From a phage: a stretch of DNA of 64,000 nucleotides. The notes under the pieces are model-generated. The model was not told the origin of the DNA. It saw nothing but the letters and a program-made list of their open reading frames with translations, and ran no database searches. The translations under genes and the position numbers were made by a program. Location: the sequence record NC_135728.1; one strand, written 5' to 3'. Positions 29,503 to 64,000 of the stretch are shown here, one piece after another (within the stretch, counting starts at the first letter, position 1; each line of letters opens with the position of its first letter).

Positions 29503-30027
29503 ATGCTTCTGATTAACTGGGAAGACCTCTATGGGGACAAAGACCCTGTTGCGTTTGTTGATCGTAGATGGAGATATACTGAAGAACAACTGGCTGCAAA
29601 AAATTTAACTGCAAAACGCAGAAAGATCATCCAGTGCAAGTATAAATACGCACAGTTTGCTGCAAAAGTGTCTCCCCAAATCGAGAGCTTTGTGCTTAAA
29701 TTGTATGACGAGTACCTCAAATTCAAACTGGATTTTGTACAGGTATACCGTGCACAGATACGCCCAGATACCAGCATTTGTAGATGGAAGGTTGTTTGTG
29801 ACGGTAAAGATTTGCCACTCAGCTTGACAATTGAGCAGCGTTGGGGGTATCATGAGTGCGGTCTGTATGAGACTTGGGATGTCATTGTAGATCCTGCTAA
29901 GTACCTGAACACAGAGGAGCTGGAATATATCAATAAGGTTATTCTCGATATGTTTTTCAGATACACCTGTGAAAACTCTGAGAAAGAACGGGATAATTTT
30001 CTTGACACCATCAGCAACCATCTGTAG
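29503..30027 (+). CDS. hypothetical protein
   Basis: ATG after GGAG (track start is GTG at 29494). Confidence 0.5.
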   Translation: MLLINWEDLYGDKDPVAFVDRRWRYTEEQLAAKNLTAKRRKIIQCKYKYAQFAAKVSPQIESFVLKLYDEYLKFKLDFVQVYRAQIRPDTSICRWKVVCDGKDLPLSLTIEQRWGYHECGLYETWDVIVDPAKYLNTEELEYINKVILDMFFRYTCENSEKERDNFLDTISNHL

Positions 30028-30057
30028 TATACAATTTAACCTACAAAGGGAGGGCTA

Positions 30058-30294
30058 ATGAGTATAAATGTTGTGCTAATAGGTTACCTGGTAATAGCAG
30101 TTATAACAGCGGTATTCTTGACAGGTATATGCATCGTGTCTAGACGAAGGGTGAAGTTTGATGATTTTATCACCATCATCACTGCTGCACCTTTTTGGCC
30201 TATTGTTATCTTCATCGTAATAATGTGCCTAGTTGATTACTACAAGAATATCCGTAAGGAGAAAAAGGAGAGTAGGGATGGAGACCGCGCCTAA
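30058..30294 (+). CDS. small membrane protein (two predicted TM helices)
   Basis: Hydrophobic stretches VVLIGYLVIAVITAVFL and FWPIVIFIVIMCLV; GGGAGGG RBS. Confidence 0.5.
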   Translation: MSINVVLIGYLVIAVITAVFLTGICIVSRRRVKFDDFITIITAAPFWPIVIFIVIMCLVDYYKNIRKEKKESRDGDRA

Positions 30295-30495
30295 AACTGT
30301 TTATACTGTTCTTAAAGAGATTGCGTTCTACGCAGATCTTAGCCAGGCACCTTTATGGGAAAAGAGCATGTATTTAAAATGGTGCGTTAATTTATGGAGA
30401 CCTTCCAGTGTTTCAAGCCATGTTTATTGAGATGCTATCTGGGGTATTGTTACTGGTAGCCATCTTAGGTGGTGCAGTTCTGATGTATAACTATC

Positions 30496-30699
30496 TTGAA
30501 AAAGGAGACAGCAATGGCAAAAAATAAATCTTTAGAGCAGGCTGAAAACCTTCTCCACGAGCTAGTAAAGGAGTGGAAAGTTGAATACTCAGATTTTAAT
30601 GCACGAGAGGGTGAAGATTATTGGCCTACGGAGCGCTCAGAGGGCGAATGGTATCAAGATTTTATAGAGTGGTTATATCAGACGTGTGATGAGGGGTGA
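30496..30699 (+). CDS. hypothetical protein
   Basis: AAGGAGA RBS. Confidence 0.5.
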   Translation: MKKETAMAKNKSLEQAENLLHELVKEWKVEYSDFNAREGEDYWPTERSEGEWYQDFIEWLYQTCDEG

Positions 30700-30701
30700 C
30701 G

Positions 30702-31157
30702 ATGTTTGTTAAATATGTAAAAACGTGCCTCAACAGTCTTGGCAGAGAGCATTGGTACACCTTACTTGAAAAAGGAGAAATTTTAACAAAATCTGGAAAG
30801 ATAACTTTGATACCCTTGGACGATAAAGACCCGTCACTCCTTGTCATAGATGATTACGTTACAGGTGTGTCGTACGAGGTCTCTGTGGAGAGGTTAATAC
30901 GCAGATCTGGAGGTCCTTATGACCGAAGAGAGTATGTTTTCGATTCTGTTACAGAGAAGGAAGATCCGTCTCTAATGTTCAGGATGGTAATCAGAGATAT
31001 GAGGTCATCTATAGACAGGATCGTAAAGGACATTAAGGAGCCTTTTAGGGTAAAAGTTAAGAAGTTTTTTGATTCTAAGATTAACATACTTGCCGTTGTG
31101 CTAGGCGTAATTCAACTTCTGTTAATTTTGCACTATCTTGAACTGTTGTTTAAGTAG
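30702..31157 (+). CDS. hypothetical protein with C-terminal TM helix
   Basis: C-terminal ILAVVLGVIQLLLILHYL. Confidence 0.5.
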   Translation: MFVKYVKTCLNSLGREHWYTLLEKGEILTKSGKITLIPLDDKDPSLLVIDDYVTGVSYEVSVERLIRRSGGPYDRREYVFDSVTEKEDPSLMFRMVIRDMRSSIDRIVKDIKEPFRVKVKKFFDSKINILAVVLGVIQLLLILHYLELLFK

Positions 31158-31217
31158 TGTGCAATAAGGCACAAAGGATGTGCCATAACTAAATAAACTA
31201 AGAAAGAGGTAGAGAGA

Positions 31218-31565
31218 ATGCCAAAGATTAAATCGATATTAATGTGGGTAGCTGTTGTGGCTTTTGTAGGATACTGGACTTGGGAAACTGAATTAAAAGA
31301 TATCGGATATACCAGTCTTGAGAACAAGGCGTGCATTGGCATAACCGATGCATTCAGGCAAAATGCTATGGATCACGAATGTGTCGATGCAGACATAGAT
31401 GAGAAACTGTCTAAGGACAAAGACTTCTACCACGGGTATGCTTTGCTTGATAGTGGAGACACTGTAGAGTTCTGGTCGTGGTTCCGTAAAGATGGAACAA
31501 TAAAAACAGCAGTAAAGATCTCTAACAAAGAGTTAATGCTGTTGCAGCAGAAGGAGGCTCAATGA
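31218..31565 (+). CDS. hypothetical protein with N-terminal TM/signal segment
   Basis: AGAGGTAGAGAGA RBS; N-terminal ILMWVAVVAFVGYW. Confidence 0.5.
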   Translation: MPKIKSILMWVAVVAFVGYWTWETELKDIGYTSLENKACIGITDAFRQNAMDHECVDADIDEKLSKDKDFYHGYALLDSGDTVEFWSWFRKDGTIKTAVKISNKELMLLQQKEAQ

Positions 31566-31849
31566 TCTGGATATCCTATGCTGATGGCACCATGCTGTAT
31601 ACTGCAGGTACCAGATATGAGGTTCAGGAGAACGATAAAAAATTTATCGTAAGAACATTTGACAAGGACGACAACCTTTTGCTAGAATTAACTTACAAGG
31701 TTGGGGATGTATCTAGCATCCAGTTGGATTGCGGTCATAAAGATAACCCACTCAAGAAACCTGGGGTAGGTAAAGCTTCAGAAAAACGCCTGTCTCGTAT
31801 TGCAGAAAGCGTTTCTGCACAAAAATCTAAGAAGGGGACTAGAAAATGA
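31562..31849 (+). CDS. hypothetical protein
   Basis: ATGA overlap; AGGAGG RBS. Confidence 0.5.
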   Translation: MIWISYADGTMLYTAGTRYEVQENDKKFIVRTFDKDDNLLLELTYKVGDVSSIQLDCGHKDNPLKKPGVGKASEKRLSRIAESVSAQKSKKGTRK

Positions 31850-32040
31850 AAAACTTACGTTTTAACACTTATTACTACAACACATTGAATGATTTGTATT
31901 ATATTGTTCGAAGTAAAAGTCCTGAAACAGTCCTATTCTGCCGCGAACCTTTCAAAGGGGAGGAAGTAGAGTCTGAGATGAATGTTAGCCATATTACCTC
32001 TTTGTTGCTCTCAGGTGCAATGGAAGAAGCAATATTCTAA
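31846..32040 (+). CDS. hypothetical protein
   Basis: ATGA overlap. Confidence 0.45.
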   Translation: MKNLRFNTYYYNTLNDLYYIVRSKSPETVLFCREPFKGEEVESEMNVSHITSLLLSGAMEEAIF

Positions 32041-32059
32041 ACCAGGCGGGAGGGTTTTT

Positions 32060-32245
32060 ATGAAGCACTATTGTCTGTCTGGTAGAATGGGTGCAGATTG
32101 TGATTGGGTTTTCTTAAAACTTGTCAGTATTCGAGAGTTCATCCCAGAGGAAGAGCAAGAAAGTGAGCTGATGTCATGGATCAACCATTACGGTAACACT
32201 TTTCGGCATGTTAAGGTGGAAGAGTTGCCAAGCGAGGCTGATTGA
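32060..32245 (+). CDS. hypothetical protein
   Basis: ATG after GGGAGGG. Confidence 0.4.
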   Translation: MKHYCLSGRMGADCDWVFLKLVSIREFIPEEEQESELMSWINHYGNTFRHVKVEELPSEAD

Positions 32246-32247
32246 CT

Positions 32248-32337
32248 ATGATTGCATCAATATTAACGTTTATGGGCGGCGTGGCATTCGGATTCATTGT
32301 TTGCCTGTTTATAGTGATTATGTCTATGCGAGGCTGA
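32248..32337 (+). CDS. hydrophobic micro-protein, 29 aa
   Basis: MIASILTFMGGVAFGFIVCLFIVIMSMRG; packed between two genes. Confidence 0.35.
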   Translation: MIASILTFMGGVAFGFIVCLFIVIMSMRG

Positions 32338-32340
32338 ATT

Positions 32341-32637
32341 ATGAAACTTTTTGAGTGGTTTAAAAAGTTTAAATATAAAGCTGTAGCCATCGTGCCATGG
32401 TCCATTCAATGGGTGGACGATGAGGGATTACCAATTCCAGGTGATAAAGACACGGGATACTGGATCATGCTTGAAAACGGGTTTGGAAAGCGAAAATATA
32501 CGTGCACAAACTCTACTCGATCTGCACTTAATAGAGTGCCTGGTTACAAACTTATGGTTGTGTGGAAAATGTCAGGGGTGCCTCCAGCTAATGCTCAATT
32601 TCTTACTGACAATCCAACCACGGTGGAGGGAGATTGA
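32341..32637 (+). CDS. hypothetical protein
   Basis: Track ORF. Confidence 0.5.
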   Translation: MKLFEWFKKFKYKAVAIVPWSIQWVDDEGLPIPGDKDTGYWIMLENGFGKRKYTCTNSTRSALNRVPGYKLMVVWKMSGVPPANAQFLTDNPTTVEGD

Positions 32638-32639
32638 TA

Positions 32640-32921
32640 ATGAAAAAGATTAACAGTGGTGAAGTTGAGTTTAAACTTGTCGGGAAAGGCACTTACTGGG
32701 AAGTTCGTCAAAAGGTATATTTGTTCGGTCTTATTCCCTATTGGTCTAAATTCTACTGGGGAGCTAACGAGTTGGGAAGATACGCCACCAAATCAATGGC
32801 ACTTATTGGTATAGCAGAGTACATTGCAGCCAGAGATAGGGTTGGAGACACTTATTACTATACTGCGGACGATATTCGTAACAGTGTTTACGTCCCACAA
32901 CCACCTGATGGGGACCGTTGA
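32640..32921 (+). CDS. hypothetical protein
   Basis: ATG after GGAGGGAG. Confidence 0.5.
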   Translation: MKKINSGEVEFKLVGKGTYWEVRQKVYLFGLIPYWSKFYWGANELGRYATKSMALIGIAEYIAARDRVGDTYYYTADDIRNSVYVPQPPDGDR

Positions 32922-33145
32922 TGAAAGTTAAAGTTTTAGATTCAAGCTTCTATATTGGTCAGGAGCCTTTAGTAGGGAAAGTGTTTACTGCTGTCCCTAA
33001 CGAAGATTATCCTGACCTTTTAAAAATAAAAGGTGCAGATCTTATTGCCGCTGGTGCATCTCAGGACTGCTTTGACAGTCAGTGGACCTACAACTTTGCC
33101 CTAGGTGAGGATGTAGAGGTAGTGGAGGACGATCATGAAGGTTAA
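32921..33145 (+). CDS. small acidic protein, paralog family A (cassette 1)
   Basis: MKVKVLDSSFYIGQ...LIAAGA...VEVVED. Confidence 0.55.
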   Translation: MKVKVLDSSFYIGQEPLVGKVFTAVPNEDYPDLLKIKGADLIAAGASQDCFDSQWTYNFALGEDVEVVEDDHEG

Positions 33146-33389
33146 AATTCTTGATTCTAACGTCTACTTGGGACAATCCTTCCTGAAGGGAAAGGTCGTT
33201 CCTGCGGTATACTTTGAAGGGTTGCCGTGGGATGATCCTGTGCGGCAACATCACAGTTATGTAGGCCACAACGTGGTGTTTATCTTGGGATCAGACCTGA
33301 TCACCGCTGGTGCACCTGAATATTATTTCGGGGAAGAGTCCTATTATGCCTTTGGGGTAGGGTCAGATGCGGATATTGTAGAGCTGTGA
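33135..33389 (+). CDS. small acidic protein, paralog family A (cassette 1)
   Basis: MKVKILDSNVYLGQ...LITAGA... Confidence 0.55.
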   Translation: MKVKILDSNVYLGQSFLKGKVVPAVYFEGLPWDDPVRQHHSYVGHNVVFILGSDLITAGAPEYYFGEESYYAFGVGSDADIVEL

Positions 33390-33401
33390 TGGGTAACCGT
33401 T

Positions 33402-33800
33402 GTGAAAAATAAACTGTTTAAAGTTACAATGAAAATTCGCGGAGCTTGGAGCGTAAAGCAAGGGCGTATTCCGGAATTTGAGAAAGACTTCTACGTAGTC
33501 TCCACCTCGGAGGAGGCTGCATGCTGGCAGGCTGGCTATGCCTATGCAAGAACCTGGTACGAAGGATACCAGACCGGGGGATATGACGGAGAAATTATCA
33601 GCAGAGGTGTGGAAGAAATTAATGTGTTGACAAGTGAAAAAGTTTTTGTTATAGTGCATCCAGATTCCAGAGTGAAGCATTACTGGAACGCCAGAACAAA
33701 AACTTGGACACCGTTTGCAGATTCTGCTACGCCACTTTTAAACCAGAAAGCTCTTGACTCTGCCCCAAGTTATGGGATTGTTGAAGAAAAGCTAAACTGA
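33402..33800 (+). CDS. hypothetical protein, paralog family B (cassette 1)
   Basis: Shares LFKV..., HPDS..YW..TWTP.. with 35607-36002; GTG start. Confidence 0.55.
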   Translation: MKNKLFKVTMKIRGAWSVKQGRIPEFEKDFYVVSTSEEAACWQAGYAYARTWYEGYQTGGYDGEIISRGVEEINVLTSEKVFVIVHPDSRVKHYWNARTKTWTPFADSATPLLNQKALDSAPSYGIVEEKLN

Positions 33801-33817
33801 AACAGTGAGGTACTAAC

Positions 33818-34108
33818 ATGATGGATTTAGTTCTGGACACGGATAACACCGGAGAGTTTAAAAAGGATGGTGTAACAAGCGTTGACCAATCCTTCCCTGC
33901 CAAGATTGACTCAAAATGGACCTACAAGTTCGATGGAGAGATCTTCGCAAATGATGAGAAGGTTGTAGATGCTGCAGCCATTTTGAACGCTCTAGGGTAC
34001 GACCCTGTGAATTCTTTGATCAAGGATCCTGTTGAGTTTGCAGAGTATGTTCGAAAAATGGCAGATCTTGCTGTGGATATTTTAAAAACTATCGACGACA
34101 AGCTGTAA
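33818..34108 (+). CDS. hypothetical protein
   Basis: GTGAGGT RBS. Confidence 0.5.
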   Translation: MMDLVLDTDNTGEFKKDGVTSVDQSFPAKIDSKWTYKFDGEIFANDEKVVDAAAILNALGYDPVNSLIKDPVEFAEYVRKMADLAVDILKTIDDKL

Positions 34109-34114
34109 AAACTG

Positions 34115-34143
34115 TTGACACAACGCTTCAGATTTAGTATCAT
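34115..34143 (+). promoter_or_regulatory. sigma70-like promoter TTGACA-17-TATCAT
   Basis: Directly upstream of the HPF homolog. Confidence 0.5.
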
Positions 34144-34190
34144 TGTTTTCAAAGAGGGTTTGGTTCCCTCTTCTTTAAAAGGAACACGTT

Positions 34191-34508
34191 ATGCAAATTG
34201 AAATCACTGGCAACGTAGAAATCACTGAAGGTATGGTGTCTTTCATTTCCCACAAAATGTCTAAGCTGGAGCGTTTGCACCCATCTGCCAACTATGCACG
34301 TGTGAGTGTAAAAGTTGAAAATGATCACCAGGAAGTTATGGCGTTCATTTTTGACAATTCTGGAAAAGAAGTTATTGCCAAGGCTAAAGGCAGTGATGCT
34401 TACGAGGCAACTGACCGTATGGTAGATGTTGCAGCACGTCAGCTGGCTAAATGCGGTGGAAAGAAAGGTAAGGGGAAAGGCAAAGTAAAGATTGACTTTG
34501 GAGAATGA
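34191..34508 (+). CDS. hpf: ribosome hibernation promoting factor / RaiA-family homolog
   Basis: Colinear with E. coli HPF: MQIEITGNVEITEGM...KLE...VKVE...GSDAYEATD...ARQLAK, plus a basic KGKGKGK tail. Confidence 0.85.
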   Translation: MQIEITGNVEITEGMVSFISHKMSKLERLHPSANYARVSVKVENDHQEVMAFIFDNSGKEVIAKAKGSDAYEATDRMVDVAARQLAKCGGKKGKGKGKVKIDFGE

Positions 34509-34517
34509 GGTGCTACA

Positions 34518-34619
34518 ATGGGTGTGATTAAGAAATTAGTCCCAAATGTAGAGATTGCATGCTTTGAAATTATGTTTGCAATCGCAGTTGTAGTTAATGT
34601 GTTAGGTTACGGCTATTAA
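34518..34619 (+). CDS. hydrophobic micro-protein, 33 aa
   Basis: GAGGTG RBS; MGVIKKLVPNVEIACFEIMFAIAVVVNVLGYGY. Confidence 0.35.
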   Translation: MGVIKKLVPNVEIACFEIMFAIAVVVNVLGYGY

Positions 34620-34645
34620 TATCAAATAATTGAGGAGACCTCTAA

Positions 34646-34915
34646 ATGAAAATTAAATTATTCAAAACCGAGCTGGCAGACAAAAACTGTGGACTGGTTG
34701 AAGGCATGATTGTCGAAGCACAACCAGTTGACTATATGAAGGTGGTTCGTGATGCCCTGGGTGAAGGTTTTGATCTGATGGAGCCAGCTCTGCGAGAAGA
34801 TGTTATCGAGATGGCTAAAAAGCACACACCTGAAGGCATGGTGGTGTTTGTTGCACCGGGTAACGGAGAAGAGTTGATTGTAACTCCTGATGTGTATGAG
34901 ATTGTAGAGGAATAA
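34646..34915 (+). CDS. small acidic protein, paralog family A
   Basis: MKIKLFK... start, EIVEE end; GAGGAGA RBS. Confidence 0.5.
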   Translation: MKIKLFKTELADKNCGLVEGMIVEAQPVDYMKVVRDALGEGFDLMEPALREDVIEMAKKHTPEGMVVFVAPGNGEELIVTPDVYEIVEE

Positions 34916-35006
34916 TCCTGCTTGGATTAGCAGGCTTCCTCGATAAGGAAGGTTTGTAATTATTTGTGGGAAAGGAATCCCAATCTCTTACCAGAGGTGA
35001 TACTAT

Positions 35007-35270
35007 ATGATTGTTTATTTTAAAACTTCAGGTGGATACCCTGATTCTCAAAGCTTGATCGGAAAAACGTGCACAGCATACTCACCTCTTGATGAGGAGG
35101 TAGGCGATATTCTACGAAATATGTATCGGATTGATCCTCAAGAAGCTTTTGATCAAAATCTTGTATTTGTCAAGGGCTCAGACATGAAGTCTTTGGGAGC
35201 ATTCCCTGAAGCAGATGATGATGCCGTTTATTCGTTCATGACTCCTTTTGAAGCTATGGTTATTGGGTGA
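35007..35270 (+). CDS. small acidic protein, paralog family A (cassette 2)
   Basis: GAGGTGA RBS. Confidence 0.5.
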   Translation: MIVYFKTSGGYPDSQSLIGKTCTAYSPLDEEVGDILRNMYRIDPQEAFDQNLVFVKGSDMKSLGAFPEADDDAVYSFMTPFEAMVIG

Positions 35271-35275
35271 TAATA

Positions 35276-35607
35276 TGAAAGTACGCTTTATTGGTGAAAC
35301 AATTCCTGTGCATCTCCGGTCGCCTGAGGATTCTGCAGATCTTGCATCTCAAAAGGCGAGAGGCTATGATAAGAAAGTAATCTCAACCGATGTAGTGCTT
35401 GAGGCTACTAGTCTACCTGACCCCGCTGCATTCTTTAATCATTATGGATACTATTTCAGCAATCTGATGAATATCGGTGAGCTTGTGTTTATTAGTGGTG
35501 GAGAAATTGTTAGCAAGCTTGGCGGCGATCCGGATGTCTTTCATGAAACCTGTCCTTTTGCATTTGTGGTGGGTTCAGATGTGGAAGTTATTGAGGAGGT
35601 GCGGTAA
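35276..35607 (+). CDS. small acidic protein, paralog family A (cassette 2)
   Basis: MKVRFIG... start, VEVIEE end. Confidence 0.5.
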
Positions 35608-36002
35608 TGGTAAGCCTATACCGTGTTGAGTATAGCTCAGATACTGTATACAACGTAAGAAGCAAAGATCGCAGCGACAGAGTGCAAGAAATGTATGTTC
35701 TTGCCGACAGTCCGTTATCTGCAGCGTTCAAGGCAGGGGCTCTTGCATCTCGTTGGAAATTTGAAGGCGGATCTTTCTATGAAGAAACCCTTGAAGATTC
35801 TGTTGTTATTTCTTCTGTAGAGGTTTCAGATGACTACGAAGGGAAAAAGTTCGTAATGCGGCACCCACACAGTAACATTGCGTACTACTGGGATGTTCTG
35901 AACAACGAGTGGACCCCAGATCTTCAGAAGGCTACTGTGCTAACACCGTTTTTGGCAGATAAGTTCCCACCAGAAGGTAATTTATCCGCACTGTTTCAGT
36001 AA
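35607..36002 (+). CDS. hypothetical protein, paralog family B (cassette 2)
   Basis: LYRV..., HPHS..YW..EWTP.. shared with 33402-33800. Confidence 0.55.
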   Translation: MVSLYRVEYSSDTVYNVRSKDRSDRVQEMYVLADSPLSAAFKAGALASRWKFEGGSFYEETLEDSVVISSVEVSDDYEGKKFVMRHPHSNIAYYWDVLNNEWTPDLQKATVLTPFLADKFPPEGNLSALFQ

Positions 36003-36020
36003 TTTTCTTGCACACAGGTG

Positions 36021-36050
36021 TTGACAACACCAACCCTGTGTGAAATAATA
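36021..36050 (+). promoter_or_regulatory. sigma70-like promoter TTGACA-17-AATAAT
   Basis: Consensus -35, moderate -10. Confidence 0.35.
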
Positions 36051-36081
36051 CCTTCATCTTAACAAGACAGGAGACTGATTG

Positions 36082-36339
36082 ATGAAGATTAAATTGAAAA
36101 ACCTTGAAACGGCAGAGATTCAGGACGGTGTAGATTTCCGTTCTAAAGATGGTGACATCTTAGAGGTAAATCTTCCAACCTACGAGCTGATTAAAGGTTT
36201 TGGCAACGTTCAGGAAGAGGATATTCCAGAAATTCTTATGATGTTGATTCTTGACGGAACTGTGTTTGTAGGTGAAGGTGAGAACGCTATTGCAATCCCA
36301 GGCCATTTTTATGAAGTAGTTGACGAAGAGGTGCTGTAA
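36082..36339 (+). CDS. small acidic protein, paralog family A
   Basis: MKIKLKN... start, VVDEEVL end. Confidence 0.5.
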   Translation: MKIKLKNLETAEIQDGVDFRSKDGDILEVNLPTYELIKGFGNVQEEDIPEILMMLILDGTVFVGEGENAIAIPGHFYEVVDEEVL

Positions 36340-36690
36340 ATGAAAGTAGAAATTACTGGTTTTGATGTTAGTGTGGTTCCGGAAGATATTTTAGCTAACT
36401 TACCGGAAGGTTTTGGTAACGGTGTTGTGGTGGATGCTGTTCCTCCTACCAAAGACATTCTGCTGCAGTATGGTGTAGCAGAGGAAGATGTCGATAAAGT
36501 TCTTACAATGATGGCAATCGATCGTGTTGTCGTTGTTAAAGGTCTCGATAATTTTGAGAGTGATCCTCTGATTATTCGCGGAGATGACTACAAAATCATC
36601 GATAATGAAGGCCAAGAGTTCTATGAGCCTTGTGCAGAAGATATTCTTAACTTATTACTGGAAGCAGGCACCGAAGAGGAGGACGAATAA
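36340..36690 (+). CDS. small acidic protein
   Basis: MKVEITG... start, EEEDE end. Confidence 0.5.
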   Translation: MKVEITGFDVSVVPEDILANLPEGFGNGVVVDAVPPTKDILLQYGVAEEDVDKVLTMMAIDRVVVVKGLDNFESDPLIIRGDDYKIIDNEGQEFYEPCAEDILNLLLEAGTEEEDE

Positions 36691-37019
36691 TGAAGATTGA
36701 CCCGTTACTGAAGGCTCGTGCAGAAAAAGCGTACACCATTAAGTTGACCAACTTGGTTCCTACTTGTCATCCGGATGTAGGTTGGCCAGAAGGTTTGGTG
36801 GAGGGAACTGTAACAGCTGCATACCTTCCTAACATCAAATACCTCATGGAAATCTTGGAGCTGGATGAGGAAACGGCAGAAGAGTTCCAGTTGGACATGA
36901 AACAAAGTGGGACTCTGGTTATTCACGGGTGGTACAATACTAAAGATGCAGAAGATCCTCTGGTAACTTCTAATCTGGCATATGAAATCTTAGGACCTTT
37001 GAACCTGGAGGAAGACTAA
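36690..37019 (+). CDS. small acidic protein
   Basis: TAATG overlap with the upstream gene. Confidence 0.5.
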   Translation: MKIDPLLKARAEKAYTIKLTNLVPTCHPDVGWPEGLVEGTVTAAYLPNIKYLMEILELDEETAEEFQLDMKQSGTLVIHGWYNTKDAEDPLVTSNLAYEILGPLNLEED

Positions 37020-37306
37020 TGAAAGATCTGGTTAAGATTAAGATTAAAGATACCAATGGAGAACTCAGCCATTTTGGAATTAATGATGGTGACGAGCTGA
37101 TCGCACACCTGCCTACCAAGGAGGTTGTAAGCAAAGCAGTTGCCGGAGAAGAAGCTGCAATGCAGGCTGCAGGTGTGGATGAAAACTATGTAGCTATGTG
37201 CATGTGCCGAGATCAGGTTGTTCTGTATAAAGCGTATCGACCAAACGGAGCCACGGAGTGGCTTGTATTCCGACCCGAAGGATATGAAATCTTAGAGGCA
37301 CTGTGA
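37019..37306 (+). CDS. small acidic protein
   Basis: TAATG overlap; MKDLVKIKIKD... Confidence 0.5.
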   Translation: MKDLVKIKIKDTNGELSHFGINDGDELIAHLPTKEVVSKAVAGEEAAMQAAGVDENYVAMCMCRDQVVLYKAYRPNGATEWLVFRPEGYEILEAL

Positions 37307-37395
37307 TAAATCTTGCCAAGGTTGCAACGGCACTGTTAATTATTTGCTGGTCAGTAACCTTAACACTGTGTCTTGTATTTCAGTGAGGTGCTTGT

Positions 37396-37659
37396 ATGAA
37401 CATCCTGATGTGGGTTATAGCAGTGGCGTTTGTTGCATGTTTTTGCTGCTGGGTTGCGGTGAGGATTTCTGTAGCTACCCTTCGGAAGTTGGGGTTCTCA
37501 GAATGGGATATTAATATCCTTTCTTTTCGCAATGAAACAATCTCAGCCGCCCTGCTTTGTAAGAAATTCAAGTGGGAACCTTGTGAGGTCATGAACTATC
37601 TAAGAACAGGTGATATTCCTGAAAGATTTAAAAAAGTTCTTGACGGCAAGGATAAATGA
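37396..37659 (+). CDS. small membrane protein (N-terminal TM helix)
   Basis: MNILMWVIAVAFVACFCCWVAV; GAGGTG RBS. Confidence 0.5.
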   Translation: MNILMWVIAVAFVACFCCWVAVRISVATLRKLGFSEWDINILSFRNETISAALLCKKFKWEPCEVMNYLRTGDIPERFKKVLDGKDK

Positions 37660-37687
37660 CAGTATAGTGACTAACAAGAGGTGAGGA

Positions 37688-37828
37688 GTGACTGATTTTA
37701 CTGAAGCTTTAATGATGGCCTTGTCTGTTTTAGCGCTATCGGTGTGTTTTGGGGCGTTATTCACATCTCTGGTTAAAGTTTTACATACAGTATTATTACC
37801 CAAGGAGCGCAGTAATGACGAAGATTGA
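37688..37828 (+). CDS. small membrane protein, 46 aa
   Basis: GTG after AAGAGGTGAGGA; TM-like ALSVLALSVCFGALFTSLV; overlaps next gene start. Confidence 0.4.
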   Translation: MTDFTEALMMALSVLALSVCFGALFTSLVKVLHTVLLPKERSNDED

Positions 37829-38066
37829 CTTGAATGCTGGCGACCATGTTGTTGTCAAATGCATCGGAGATTATCTTGGATTCACAATCGGCAATACTTA
37901 TGAGGCGGTAGTGGCGAAGGTTTATCATGATAAAGTCCTCAGTCTTGTATTTGACTGCGATGATGATGGGGATGACCGATACGTCTGTGAGGTGCTGGCA
38001 CGAGACGATAGTGAAGACCAGAAATTCCTGGTTATTGAACTGAACGGTATTTTTGTAGAACGTTAA
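37815..38066 (+). CDS. hypothetical acidic protein
   Basis: ATG after AAGGAG (track start is further upstream). Confidence 0.5.
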   Translation: MTKIDLNAGDHVVVKCIGDYLGFTIGNTYEAVVAKVYHDKVLSLVFDCDDDGDDRYVCEVLARDDSEDQKFLVIELNGIFVER

Positions 38067-38094
38067 TTTAAAACAACATAAGGAGACTCTTACT

Positions 38095-38400
38095 ATGGCT
38101 AAATCTAAAGTTGAACTGTTCACCTCTCTTCCTTCTGACACTGCAGAACGTGATCGCCTTCGCAAAACAATCGAAGAACTGGTGGAACTCCAGCTTCAGA
38201 TTAAAGATCTGAAAGATGCCATCAAGGATATCATTCTTGTTGAGAAGCAGGATCATCTGTATTCTCCTAAATTCATCAAATCTTTGGTGGCTACAGAGTT
38301 TGATATCCGCTACGAAGCTGAAAAACGTCGCGCTAAGATTGAAGAAGAGGTTGAGCACATGTCTGAGGCAGACATTCTGTTCAAACGCTCTGTAGAATAA
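38095..38400 (+). CDS. hypothetical protein (coiled-coil-like)
   Basis: AAGGAGA RBS. Confidence 0.5.
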   Translation: MAKSKVELFTSLPSDTAERDRLRKTIEELVELQLQIKDLKDAIKDIILVEKQDHLYSPKFIKSLVATEFDIRYEAEKRRAKIEEEVEHMSEADILFKRSVE

Positions 38401-39997: not shown

Positions 39998-40346
39998 CAC
40001 ACAATTAGTTGCCCGGCTAAAGTGCTGGGAGCACCCATAACACATCTTTCAACTAAATTTCCTACCACCACAATCACTTACCTCCCACACATGACTGTTT
40101 GCTTGTTTAGTGAGCAGTCATGCCTTGACATTCTTGCCTATCCTGATAAAATTAAGTTCTTCTCTTTTCTTTTACCGAGTAATTCGGGTTTTCTGTTCTC
40201 TTCGGTTTGAAGGGGTATGGAGATACACCTGAGTGAACAGGGTGAACAACCGAACCATTGGCTATGGCATTAGCATGGCGAAGCGGACGGGTGACGAAAG
40301 AGGGGCCGGAGGACACCAGTCACTGCCATATGATATATGGGTGATA

Positions 40347-40865
40347 ACCTGAAGAGTCTGAATAAGTGTTTAAGTACCAGTCAGAGGAAAAGGTGAATGG
40401 TAGCCGAAGGGGGAGGGGGGTTACCTGCTTCTGTAAACATGCATCTGAAATACTACTTTAGATAACCTGAACCTGCCTTTCTGACAAATATTCCCTATTA
40501 AACTTGAATTATTTATAGAAAATACCACAACACCACTTAAGTCTTTGATTTTACACACAAATCTTACAGATATTAAACCTCTCTATTTAACATACCTGTA
40601 ACATATACTATACTCCACCTGTCTGATCAATTTCCCCAACTACATCCCCATATTTTCCCTGTCTGTACTACCCCTGCCCCGCCGGGAGTCCCGTCATATC
40701 TGGCTTTCCAGCAAATATCACACCCACAAATATCATCACCTGAAGAGGGTTTCATCCCATAATACATGCCTTACCTGAAGAGCGCTTCATATACCCCGTA
40801 AATTTTTTAATTGACCCCCTCCCCGCCGCCGGAGGGGTTGGCTTTTCCCACACAAACCTGAAGAG
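40347..40865. repeat. dispersed direct repeats of ACCTGAAGAG (4 copies)
   Basis: Copies at about 40347, 40738, 40773, 40856; ACCTGAAC variant at about 40463. Confidence 0.5.
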
Positions 40866-41425
40866 TCAGCCAGAAATATCTGAACAGCCAGTTATACCAC
40901 GATTTTGTGCTTGTCCTACAGGAGTGCTTCCCTGTCAGGAGCCGGTAGCGACTGGAGTGCTGCCAGGCGGACGAAATGGGAATACTTCTCATTCTTATAA
41001 CAATTCTCAAATATCGAGGCAGTGAGGCAAATTAATAGGTGAGGCCGTTCACACAGTGGCACAACATTTGCAACCTATCTTGTGGGATTGAATGAGAATA
41101 CCTATCATTGTGAGAACTGTTATCATTACGGGCAATTTAACATAATACCCATTATGCGCACCACTGGCGATACATACAGGGATTTATAACATGAGTTACT
41201 GTTTACGTATATAACAATTATATTTCTTACTATTTGTGTGGGATATAGTTAGCAGCCGATAGATTAGATATTGACCTGCAGACTTCCAACCGTCTAGACG
41301 TCTAAACGCCCACACAACAAGGTTTATACATACATTACTGAATGTAAACAGGGCCGCAAAAATGCTACCATACAAGATTGTAAATTTTTCATGCAGCACT
41401 TGACAAAGAGGAGAAAAACTTGTCT

Positions 41426-41505
41426 GACACTTTAGACACAATAGTGACATAATATGACACCTTTGACACACTGGACACATTAAACATAATTGACATGCCT
41501 GACTG
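41426..41505. repeat. iteron-like array of GACA(C/T) repeats phased every 9-11 bp
   Basis: Eight copies: GACAC, GACACA, GACAT, GACAC, GACACA, GACACA, GACAT, GACT. Confidence 0.6.
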
Positions 41506-41540
41506 TTTACATAGCTAACTATTTACTAAAAAATGATAAG

Positions 41541-41852
41541 CCATGCCATTCGTTTGCATGATAAAGATTAGCAAGTTAATAATCTTTCGCTGGCTATGCC
41601 AGGTGACCTTTGGTCACCCCTTCGGGTGTTTCTATGACATAATATAAAAGCAGGGCAACTATTAGCAGATCATAGTTGCCTTGCTTGTTAACACCCTTGA
41701 GACGAAGGCTTTGCCTGAGTTTATGTCATGATTAACTAAATACAAGGCAACTATGATCTGATTAATAGTTTGCAGACAAACTATCACGGGGGTGATGGTT
41801 ACTGCTTTTATATTATGTCGCGACTCCGTCGCGCCATGCCATTCGTTTGCAT
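41541..41852. repeat. nested repeat complex: 19-bp direct repeat, 18-bp inverted repeat and internal palindromes
   Basis: CCATGCCATTCGTTTGCAT at 41541 and 41834; GACATAATATAAAAGCAG (41636) inverted at 41802; GGTGACC-TTT-GGTCACC; GGCAACTAT-N9-ATAGTTGCC. Confidence 0.6.
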
Positions 41853-42477
41853 AGTTGCCTTATTGTTACGAATAAAACAATTGCATTGTTAATGATTTCT
41901 TATCTTTCTCTTAGTCATCTAATGATTCCAGTCAGTCTAGTAATGTACAGTAAACATTAGACGACTAAAGATTTCCCTGTTTATGATAACTCACCGTGAT
42001 AATTTCAGGCTGTTTACTAAAAATGTTGACACCTAAGCTGATTTATGTTATGCAGTTTACACGAATAATTATTTTATGCAGGTATTGACTATTCCGTTAT
42101 TCTATGGTTGGAATAAATACTTAGCAGACTATAGAATGGTGAGCGTACGTAAATTCTGAGATCTGGCGGCTATAGTTATACTCGATTTTTCACGTAGAAC
42201 ACGCTTTTGTGAGTGTGTAAGTGTATGACTTATAAAGATTTTTAGTTGTTGACAAGATATTGAAGATGTGCATCAGGTTAAATTTTGTGCAATAGCGGCA
42301 TTACGTGCAATTCTGAGAGAGAAAACGGGTAAAAATGGCCCTGCTACCACAAGATGAAAGATTATGCAATAGTTATTTTTATATGTATATTTGTACAGTA
42401 GGGTTAATTGCTGGCTTGTTGATTATTCCACTTGCCAGGTGGGGCCGTTTGTGGTAGGAGAAATACAGACAAAAAGA

Positions 42478-42508
42478 AAGGGGCCTTTTAAAGCCCCTGA
42501 TAGTTTAG
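42478..42508 (-). terminator. rho-independent terminator of the leftward block
   Basis: On minus strand GGGGC-loop-GCCCC followed by TTTCTTTTT, just past gene 42517-42936. Confidence 0.6.
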
Positions 42509-62207: not shown

Positions 62208-62483
62208 CAATAGTTCAGGTAGGTCGTTAAGCTACCCCGCACCATTACGTGCATAGCCATACGTTTTCACGTAGGATCGGACCATCTCATATTCCTATGA
62301 TAAGCAACCACAGGAATCCTCCCATTTCGACCGCACTTGCTGGTCTACTTCCTTTCGGAATGGCCTCTGAGCGTTCGCTCTTTTGAGCGCTTCGTTGCGG
62401 ATTACCTTGCCATAAGGTTTAGGCTTCCCGCAGTTAAAGAGGTTATTCGACATAGATTACTCTATGAAGCCACAATGTTATTT
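62208..62483 (-). ncRNA. putative group I self-splicing intron (276 nt) in the DNA polymerase gene
   Basis: Interrupts the ORF between the H and D codons of motif C; exon ends in U, intron ends in G; GUGG guide 11 nt into intron can pair with exon CCAU; P-like CUGCGGGAAG, Q-like AAUCCGCAAC, P7 strands GACCA / UGGUC. Confidence 0.65.
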
Positions 62484-64000
62484 ATGGTAATAAATAATAC
62501 GACGAACACCTTCATCGTACCACCCACGCTTCACCATTTGGTGGTGCATGAGTATCCCAACTAAGTCACACAGCGATGCACCACCATTTTGTTGGTATGC
62601 ATTAAGTAAAGAGTGTTTAGATCTGGTCCAGATAGCATGACCATCGAAAGAGTAGATAAACTTCTTACCTGTTGCTTCCCAGAATTTCTCCAGATCCTCT
62701 TTGCGCCCCTTAAGACCGGGGTTGGCATCCCAAAGTGCATCTATTACCCTTTGCCCCAACTCTGGAGAGATGTCCAACATATCTGCAACTTTATCTTTTT
62801 GTGCCCCGTACATAACACCATACGTGATAGGTTTACCGTCGTTACGGGACACCTCTCTGCCTGCTACTTTTGTATATGCCTCGGCATTGTTTTGGTGTGC
62901 GTCTCCGTTACTTACAACATCATAATACAGGCCGTTGTCGAACTCAAAGGCACCCCAAGCCCCGATAAGCTGCTCTAAGTTGGACCCGTCAATACCGATC
63001 TGAAAGTATCCGGGAGGAACACCCCATAGACTACGCATCTCTTTACCCATAACCACTTTAGGAGATGGTTTAGGCATGTTTGCACAAATACTGTGTTTCT
63101 GTCTGGAAGTGTTTGTTAGCCCAGAACTTTTAGCAGGAAGCTTATGGTCAATCTTCAAACGTGGGTGATTAAGAAGACCAGTATCAACCTTATCCTCCTT
63201 GATTGGGTCAAGGACCGATCTGCGGTTTCGCAATGATAACCACAAGACGATATCTTTAGCCATCTCTCCGTTCAATTTTTCAAGATTCGGACACAGGTGT
63301 CCAAACGTATCTTTCAGTTGCGGAGAAGTAATAAGTGCCCTGGCTTTTCTACGTATTTTCCCGAACACTTCCTTTTTAATCCTTTCGGAGTTAGGAAAGC
63401 TTCGGAACTTGTGCACGGTTGTCTGGAACTTAGCATCAGTTTTGTTCCAGAAGTTGATAATTAGGTCACAATACTCTGACTCTAAAAGCTCGTCCATATA
63501 AGCATATACTCGTGCATCAACATCTGCATCAGGTAGAGCTTTCTTCTTGCTGTCTTTAGTTACATCCTTAGTTCTCCACATTGTCGGGAGCCAGCCAGCG
63601 CTGATCAGATACCGCTTAATGTCGTCCTGATTGCTGATTTTCATAGGTATCTTGCAGTCCGGCATTCGCTTCTGCTGTAGATCACTTATTGCCTGATCCA
63701 TCAGCTCTTTAGGCAAAGGGTGTGGTGTGGAAGTTCCCTTAATATAGCCTCTCAAGAAATCAGCCATCTTATCGGGGTCTTTGCAGCCCATCTCTTCACA
63801 CCATTTTATCCCCATCTTGCTGACATCCCCTGTAGAGGTAAATGCTCTCTTAGGCGGGGCTTTGAACTCTAAAGCGCTCATGTCTACAGGATAGCCAAGC
63901 TTATCTTTTAACCATTTCCAACCATTATTAGAGATTGTCCCGTCTTGGTTAAACGGCTTTTCAGGGAACTTGGGCCGCTGAGACATTGACAGCTCTTTTA
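62484..64000 (-). CDS. DNA polymerase family A, exon 1 (partial; N-terminus may lie beyond the window)
   Basis: Motif B-like KPITYGVMYGAQ; ends ...VRRIIYYH (cf. Pol I RMIMQVH-DE); reading frame stays open upstream of the track start at 63986. Confidence 0.8.

Follow-up and report, generated by a model that had tools for sequence, protein, structure and literature searches.

An HPF-family gene and its conserved promoter-like site in an rV5-type Vequintavirus

The closest described counterpart of the gene studied here is gene 144 of the Escherichia coli phage rV5, listed by Kropinski 2013 (Virol J 10:76, Table S3) at 98197-98514 as a 105 aa 'sigma 54 modulation factor' with PF02482. The same work (Table S4) gives it a promoter, P144, whose sequence, TTGACACAACGCTTCAGATTTAGTATCAT, is identical to the one found here. 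HPF homologs in rV5, related E. coli phages, and the Cronobacter phage GAP32 were reported by Mizuno 2019 (Nat Commun 10:752, PMC6375957), and the gene was again remarked on in a description of five new rV5 isolates (Mathieu et al. 2020). In GenBank, orthologs of gp144 carry the names 'sigma 54 modulation factor', 'ribosome hibernation promotion factor S30AE', 'ribosome hibernation factor', 'hpf', and 'RaiA', and the generic name used by NCBI for the phage protein is 'ribosome-associated translation inhibitor RaiA'. With the rV5 genome annotation, the 2019 publication, and dozens of GenBank labels at hand, the existence of this gene is not news. Both the gene and its promoter are already known from the rV5 literature; its ribosome-control function is a prediction from sequence.

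Two E. coli proteins provide the cellular comparison. E. coli HPF (YhbH; PDB entries 2rql, 4v8h, and 6h4n) has the same fold and falls in the same length class as the phage protein, but it is expressed in stationary phase, whereas the phage gene has an early-type promoter. A cryo-EM preprint (10.1101/2025.10.07.680626) describes K80, R83, K87, K89, and K91 as strictly conserved basic residues of helix 2 contacting 16S rRNA, and reports further HPF contacts through K26/Q29, through H55/E60 to uS9, and through T53/H62 to m2G966. E. coli RaiA (YfiA / protein Y) consists of the same domain with a flexible, unmodelled C-terminal extension past helix 2, to which the tail of the phage protein may correspond. 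In RaiA, this flexible tail overlaps with the site of RMF and keeps ribosomes from dimerising into 100S particles (PMC13152769).

Viral bS21, viral bL12, and the HPF of GAP32 are likewise genes of the translation machinery that large lytic phages have captured and that purifying selection maintains. Viral bS21 and bL12 enter E. coli ribosomes, whereas rV5 HPF was not shown to do so (Mizuno 2019). The GAP32 protein is more divergent and clusters apart from the E. coli-phage homologs (Mizuno 2019), and it is too divergent to be retrieved by tblastn with the phage protein at E<=1e-3.

When the rV5 protein was expressed from pBAD24, mass spectrometry detected it in the crude extract and gave a negative result in purified 70S and 100S ribosomes (Mizuno 2019). 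Expression had no discernible effect on 100S particles, the level of which stayed unchanged; in contrast to E. coli HPF, the phage protein was not found on them (Mizuno 2019). Harvest took place at OD600 1, when exponential growth was ending, and the ribosomes had been pelleted through 500 mM NH4Cl (Mizuno 2019). By comparison, HPF and RaiA were visualised on ribosomes prepared with cushions of ~100 mM NH4Cl (10.1101/2025.10.07.680626), and classical hibernation-factor work used crude ribosomes, a high-salt wash being what defines core ribosomal proteins (PMC13152769). The authors' own explanations were the wrong growth phase, salt washing, or a true loss of binding, and they put forward the idea that the viral protein could act as a rival of cellular HPF and so keep ribosomes from dimerising (Mizuno 2019, PMC6375957).

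This negative is close to an absence of ribosome binding, the finding that the initial annotation of the DNA analysed here, made from the sequence alone, had named as contrary to its proposal of a phage-encoded ribosome hibernation factor. Hibernation factors are salt-labile and are not known to bind any but vacant ribosomes, and 500 mM NH4Cl is expected to strip them. Because of this salt concentration and the harvest at OD600 1, the negative result is not decisive; it lowers the claim of ribosome binding without excluding it. Our literature searches found no later functional study of the phage HPF, no transcript, proteomic, or mutant data for gp144 during infection, and nothing specific on Vequintavirus expression or on stationary-phase infection by rV5-like phages.

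Identity, distribution, and family of the gene

The window, i.e., the whole stretch of 64,000 nucleotides that was analysed (NC_135728.1), contains the gene in the following arrangement:

34115-34143, + strand: sigma-70-type promoter-like site TTGACA-17-TATCAT (rV5 P144), matching 11 of 12 consensus positions
34152..34172, + strand: 7-bp stem-loop AAGAGGG / CCCTCTT from the MFE fold, at the 5' end of a transcript predicted to start ~7 nt past 34143
34178..34182, + strand: Shine-Dalgarno-like AAGGA, ~8 nt 5' of the ATG, read from the sequence
34191..34508, + strand: hpf-like gene (rV5 gp144), ATG start, 105 aa
34518..34619, + strand: 33-aa hydrophobic ORF (rV5 gp145, 'membrane protein, 1 TMD'), per related records and rV5 Table S3
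34646..34915, + strand: 89-aa acidic ORF (rV5 gp146), 60% identical and syntenic in the sister-lineage contig L003

Over 3 kb around the ORF, the DNA shares 98.5% identity with Escherichia phage rV5_ev147, its best database match; of the 120 phage records matched by this stretch, nearly all are rV5-like Vequintavirus. Judged by these matches, the window is phage DNA and represents another isolate of the rV5-type Vequintavirus group. The product of ORF 34191-34508 is exactly the sequence quoted in the initial annotation, is 100% identical to rV5 gp144 (ABI79209), and belongs to a 90% cluster with 163 members on 189 contigs. Protein, genomic place, promoter P144, and the neighbours gp143, gp145, and gp146 are all as in rV5, with no substantive difference. 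Among the related records, 18 unannotated MG0656xx entries (e.g., MG065666 and MG065654) are named 'Campylobacter phage' with C. jejuni as the host and are rV5-like genomes, with 97-100% identity to the window in the HPF protein and ~98% in DNA; the C. jejuni host label looks doubtful.

By tblastn, the gene turned up in 117 phage records, every one of them rV5-like with at least 90% identity, and no other deposited phage gave a match at E<=1e-3. An undeposited sister lineage carries a syntenic ortholog of 103 aa with 64-65% identity; the contigs compared from this lineage span 15.7-125.8 kb, and the protein cluster also includes a 136.8-kb contig. The sister lineage shares known Vequintavirus DNA across just 15-19% of an 8-kb stretch. 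Of the genes flanking the hpf-like gene, 21 have a counterpart in this lineage, at 28-87% identity. On these searches, the gene is confined to rV5-like phages and this one sister lineage. An exhaustive phmmer search of 1.84 billion representatives returned 22 matches at E<=1e-3, of which the cellular ones had 27-45% identity. No close cellular donor was found, the word-indexed search returning the phage clade only, and no recent donor can be named.

Comparing the window allele to seven other rV5-like alleles by the Nei-Gojobori method gave dN/dS values of 0.02-0.10 at dS 0.13-0.34, and the hpf-like gene is thus under strong purifying selection. These values, together with the near-universal presence of the gene, rule out a decaying passenger gene. 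Purifying selection combined with only distant cellular relatives points to an old and maintained acquisition rather than a recent passenger.

Several alleles and relatives have features of their own. The allele of phage inoa (locus L013, 395-694) has an in-frame N-terminal deletion of 6 aa, GNVEIT, covering strand 1 and the following loop; that of JES2013 (locus L011, 301-618) has a GTG start; and those of Murica (locus L007, 401-700), nomo, and rV5_ev146 have NN at position 8, like E. coli HPF. A metagenomic protein of 1160 aa (P0006) from the search of representatives has 8 separate stretches that match phage HPF residues 35-81 (E 2.9e-9) and appears to contain tandem repeats of an HPF-like half-domain.

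The initial annotation had proposed that the protein aligns along its length with E. coli HPF and had pointed to the ribosomal S30AE / sigma-54 modulation family, and both proposals hold up. In the profile search, PF02482 (Ribosomal_S30AE) scored 48.3 bits against a gathering cut-off of 23.7 (E 1.8e-12), with residues 3-88 of the protein aligned to positions 1-83 of the 88 in the model, and TIGR00741 (HPF/YfiA family) was passed with 45.9 against a cut-off of 40.9. The best phmmer match in the PDB was E. coli HPF, aligned over residues 1-89 of both proteins (E ~5e-12). BLASTP gave 43% identity to E. coli HPF over residues 1-87 (E 5e-18) and 25% identity to E. coli RaiA. The two equivalog models failed, that of E. 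coli HPF (NF007780) with 55.8 bits against a cut-off of 125 and that of RaiA/YfiA (NF007654) with 17.6 bits against 158. By these scores, the phage protein is closer to HPF than to RaiA, yet it lies far under both equivalog cut-offs. A Pfam search found PF02482 alone in the 105 aa; the dimerisation domain PF16321 of the long, Gram-positive type of HPF was absent, whereas the long forms (167-184 aa) retrieved by the family search, which recovered 464 members, have both PF02482 and PF16321.

An AlphaFold2 model built from a 73-sequence alignment had a mean pLDDT of 85 and the elements E2-7, H13-29, E33-43, E46-55, E60-67, and H70-92. When this model was searched against the PDB with Foldseek, all 37 of the 37 top matches were HPF/RaiA/pY proteins, with best TM scores of 0.72-0.82; V. 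cholerae HPF was matched with a TM score of 0.82 and an rmsd of 1.1 A, and the ribosome-bound E. coli HPF 6h4n_x with a TM score of 0.81. The proposed HPF/RaiA-family identity thus also passes a test of structure. Because the profile and fold tests agree, we regard family membership as firm: gp144 is almost certainly an HPF-family protein, a bona fide but divergent member whose core is of the short HPF type. In OR062525/8, OR062530, MT884008, and MT884010, the HPF-like gene is labelled 'ATP-dependent protease La Type I'; given the PF02482 and TIGR00741 profile scores, the protease identity is a mis-annotation.

We compared the surface that in E. coli HPF contacts rRNA using the contact residues given in the preprint (10.1101/2025.10.07.680626), with phage equivalents assigned by BLASTP alignment to E. 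coli HPF and with conservation measured against 69 aligned cellular family members. All four of the family-invariant residues K22, D69, Y71, and D75 (phage numbering) are kept in both the phage protein and its 65%-identity ortholog. Across the 36 columns with at least 70% consensus, the phage protein is identical in 22 and similar in 7 more. It shares with E. coli HPF the residues K23/K26 (phage K22/K25), E60, the motif DxYxAxD, R83, Q84, K87, and K91, Y71 and Q84 being likewise intact, and some phage alleles also have the HPF-like 'TGNNVEIT'.

In contrast to this retained set, the strict helix-2 positions of the phage protein read V80, R83, K87, G89, and K91, so that three of the five basic contacts are kept; in the sister lineage they read T80, R83, K87, S89, and S91, with K90 and K92 adjoining. 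K80 and K89 are therefore gone from both phage lineages (position 80 being V or T and position 89 G or S), whereas among the 69 cellular members position 80 is K in 96% and position 89 is K in 97%. H88 of HPF is also missing from the phage protein. At the remaining contacts, the phage protein has K25 and R28 in place of HPF K26 and Q29, F54 and E60 in place of H55 and E60, and F52 and I62 in place of T53 and H62, i.e., Phe at the equivalents of both T53 and H55. The putative rRNA-contact surface is, on this alignment, partly remodelled.

The short basic tail described in the initial annotation is present. Residues 89-105 form a Lys/Gly-rich tail, KKGKGKGKVKIDFGE, which has a net charge of ~+3.8 and is disordered in the AlphaFold2 model from residue 91; it is attached to an acidic core (pI 5.9), compared to a near-neutral pI of 6.5 for E. 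coli HPF. Helix 2 ends in ...KCGGKKGKGKGKVKIDFGE instead of the conserved ...KHKxK, and where E. coli HPF ends in KHKDKLKQH, the phage protein instead has CGGKKGKGKGKVKIDFGE, which is 10 residues longer. Tail length differs by isolate, with that of YN3 being 2 aa shorter and that of Murica truncated (...KKGKGKAK), and the tail of the sister lineage has another sequence, but in the alleles compared the tail is always basic and Lys/Gly-rich. As modelled, the disordered tail has 15-17 residues. It is shorter than that of RaiA, whose longer tail has an acidic end (…NFVEEVEEE) rather than a basic one.

Promoter-like site and putative transcription unit

The initial annotation had also stated that the gene follows a near-consensus promoter, TTGACA-17-TATCAT, and that this promoter is its own. 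The first statement is borne out by the 11 of 12 consensus positions matched. The strict pattern TTGACA-N16-18-TANNAT occurs at 18 sites in the window against 1.1 expected, and none of 100 shuffles reached 18. These sites also follow the direction of the genes, with 10 of 10 on the + strand up to 40125 and 8 of 8 on the - strand from 43733. Because the pattern is both enriched and strand-consistent, the match upstream of the hpf-like gene is beyond chance. The site is kept in 13 of 13 orthologous loci inspected, one of them with TATTAT at -10, and the 65%-identity lineage retains AAACTGTTGACACA followed 17 nt later by AATTAT, with the other sequence of the spacer region diverged.

The stop codon of the upstream gene, at 34108, lies seven bases before the -35 box, and a terminator scan found no terminator-like site between this stop and the promoter, which makes read-through from upstream promoters likely. 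As such, the description of the gene as having its own promoter stands in part: the predicted promoter is present and conserved, but it would act in addition to the likely read-through rather than as the sole source of transcripts.

The stem-loop at 34152-34172 was considered as a regulatory element or terminator and rejected, with a region z-score of -0.45 and no call by the terminator scan. Mutations in its left arm go uncompensated in YN3, Murica, nomo, and ev146, the sister lineage lacks the hairpin altogether, and we regard the stem-loop as probably incidental. The AAGGA downstream of it corresponds in position to an annotated RBS in phage Murica.

The gp145 ORF starts 10 nt past the hpf stop codon and is preceded by a Shine-Dalgarno sequence, GAGGTG, and with this short gap and ribosome-binding sequence it is probably co-transcribed with the hpf-like gene. 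It has no significant Pfam match. It is annotated in related records and absent from the annotation of phage ECP32, and in sister-lineage contig L003 it has no match and no gene is called at its position. A further promoter-like sequence, TTGACT-16-TACAAT at 34492-34519, overlaps the start codon of this 33-aa ORF and so cannot serve it; we regard it as a mere consensus match.

The last gene of the hpf-like transcription unit is probably gp146, 3' of which lies a weak terminator-like hairpin at 34935-34951. This ORF is mislabelled 'sigma 54 modulation factor' in nimi, nomo, inoa, ECP32, and other records. A Pfam search gave no match for it at E<=1, and we therefore rejected gp146 as a second HPF-like gene and regard its label as a propagated annotation error, which appears to have spread from a mix-up of neighbouring genes in phage APCEc02.

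Small ORFs, most of them acidic, are densely packed across the wider surroundings, 30000-38100 on the + strand, and this block is syntenic in the sister lineage; six that were tested had no Pfam domains. The host-type promoter predicted for the hpf-like gene is one of many among these small, early-type genes. By translation, 32921-33145 and 33135-33389 form a paralog-like pair, as do 33402-33800 and 35607-36002, and the ORFs at 34646, 36079, 36340, and 37019 form a paralog-like set ending in ...YE(I/V)(V/L)E.

Possible roles of gp144

In the reading that we consider best, gp144 is an acquired HPF-type protein that binds ribosomes in a salt-labile manner and has a parking role; taken whole, we give this reading an even chance of being right. 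That gp144 acts on the ribosome at all we think rather probable, and the specific mode, parking or protection that does not proceed through 100S particles, we put forward only tentatively. An ancestor of the rV5-like phages would have taken an hpf-like gene from a bacterium long ago, and strong purifying selection would have followed. Transcription of gp144 by host RNA polymerase would begin as soon as infection starts and would extend into the two small ORFs downstream. Its product would then dock in the tRNA/mRNA channel of vacant host 30S or 70S ribosomes, as HPF and RaiA do, by means of the retained K22, K25, E60, R83, K87, and K91 and the flexible Lys/Gly tail. With K80 and K89 missing, this binding would be weaker and salt-labile. 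With a tail running past the end of HPF, like that of RaiA, gp144 would not promote 100S dimers of the RMF/HPF type; for the path of the tail across the ribosome, RaiA serves here as the guide. The net effect would be that ribosomes freed by host shut-off, or idle in slow-growing hosts, are held as intact 70S monomers, which would be quickly reusable for phage translation.

The unchanged 100S level on expression (Mizuno 2019) is consistent with a mode that does not involve 100S particles. Counting against the parking reading are the lack of peptides in 70S and 100S ribosomes, the HPF equivalog score of 55.8 against 125, the poorly conserved sequence of the tail and its truncation in Murica, and the 6-aa N-terminal deletion in inoa. 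Moreover, with two of the five strict helix-2 contacts lost and Phe at the T53 and H55 equivalents, binding may be truly lost rather than weakened.

The same loss of K80 and K89 would fit the weaker, reversible binding expected of an anti-hibernation competitor, as proposed by Mizuno et al. (PMC6375957). Here, gp144 would contend with host HPF/RaiA (and RMF) for one site on the 30S subunit, bind there weakly, and prevent or dissolve 100S ribosomes, releasing a translation arrest induced by stress or defence so that phage mRNAs are translated. An HPF-type core would share the binding site, a tail extending beyond the C-terminus of HPF could get in the way of RMF, like that of RaiA, and RMF is raised by some defence responses (review PMC13434031). 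However, whatever sits in the HPF site closes the A and P sites as well, so that such a competitor would be useful only if it dissociated fast, and the small 100S fraction was unchanged on expression, though cells at OD600 1 had hardly any 100S that could disappear. The proposal overlaps heavily with the parking reading, from which it differs mainly in purpose. We consider it unlikely.

Should binding be truly lost, gp144 may have kept the HPF fold while acquiring a new function, binding some other RNA or a host or phage protein in early infection. Its presence in the extract yet absence from salt-washed 70S and 100S ribosomes (Mizuno 2019) would be explained in this way. The loss of K80, H88, K89, and the T53/H55 equivalents is consistent in two lineages under strong purifying selection, and the lineage is an isolated one, going by the 22 matches among 1.84 billion representatives. 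The acidic core points in the same direction, but E. coli HPF is itself near-neutral, and K22, K25, E60, Y71, D75, R83, Q84, and K87 are all intact in the phage protein. Also speaking against a new function, the added tail has the basic character that RNA binding would call for, and the salt used in the negative experiment would be expected to strip hibernation factors in any case. A new function away from the ribosome is improbable on this evidence.

Very unlikely, finally, is an early and abundant host shut-off factor that blocks initiation on host ribosomes generally or on host mRNAs selectively: the early-type sigma-70 promoter, the known blocking of the A and P sites by this family (10.1101/2025.10.07.680626, PMC13152769), the NCBI name with its 'translation inhibitor', and the differential repression of translation by S. 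aureus HPF (PMC4889938) would suit it, but the phage needs the same ribosomes, a mechanism for selectivity is not evident, and expression from pBAD24, kept up from the overnight pre-culture until OD600 1, did not affect 70S profiles, with no growth defect reported (Mizuno 2019).

Sequence tools do not separate these alternatives from the parking reading. A related and doubtful idea is that the rV5-type protein is a distinct, phage-adapted HPF subtype rather than a passively carried host copy, as the replacement of K80, K89, and KHK in both lineages, the Gly/Lys tail, and the purifying selection would suggest. Such a subtype could have a different binding mode or target. Candidates could be a fast-exchanging occupancy of vacant ribosomes that blocks RMF/HPF/RaiA hibernation or a ribosome-directed defence, or a non-ribosomal RNA target. 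If true, this would also explain the absence of the protein from washed ribosomes.

What is added here to the known gene is the purifying selection, the distribution including a sister lineage, and the retention of three of five helix-2 contacts. gp144 is one of very few hibernation-factor homologs in a cultivated, genetically tractable E. coli phage, and its role may lie in the protection of idle ribosomes, in countering host hibernation, or in something unrelated to ribosomes. A demonstrated role on host ribosomes would be the first direct case of a phage using the hibernation-factor fold on them. V80, G89, F52, F54, and the Gly/Lys tail provide concrete residue-level differences for mutants.

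Other features of the window

The stretch at ~40200-42500 is ORF-poor and matches rV5 104013-106618, which is termed non-coding in the rV5 paper. Its GC content drops to 0.36-0.38 over 41.0-42.5 kb, and it coincides with the switch of the sigma-70-like promoters from the + to the - strand. Two perfect 18-nt inverted repeats, one nested within the other (41636-41653/41802-41819 and 41666-41683/41743-41760), make up an imperfect palindrome of ~184 bp, and a perfect 20-nt direct repeat lies at 41540 and 41833. No tRNA and no Rfam family were found in this stretch, and it is possibly an origin or a non-coding RNA region. At 62258-62493 on the - strand, Rfam detects a complete group I catalytic intron (RF00028), with 64.7 bits against a gathering threshold of 50 and a match to positions 1-253 of the 253 in the model.
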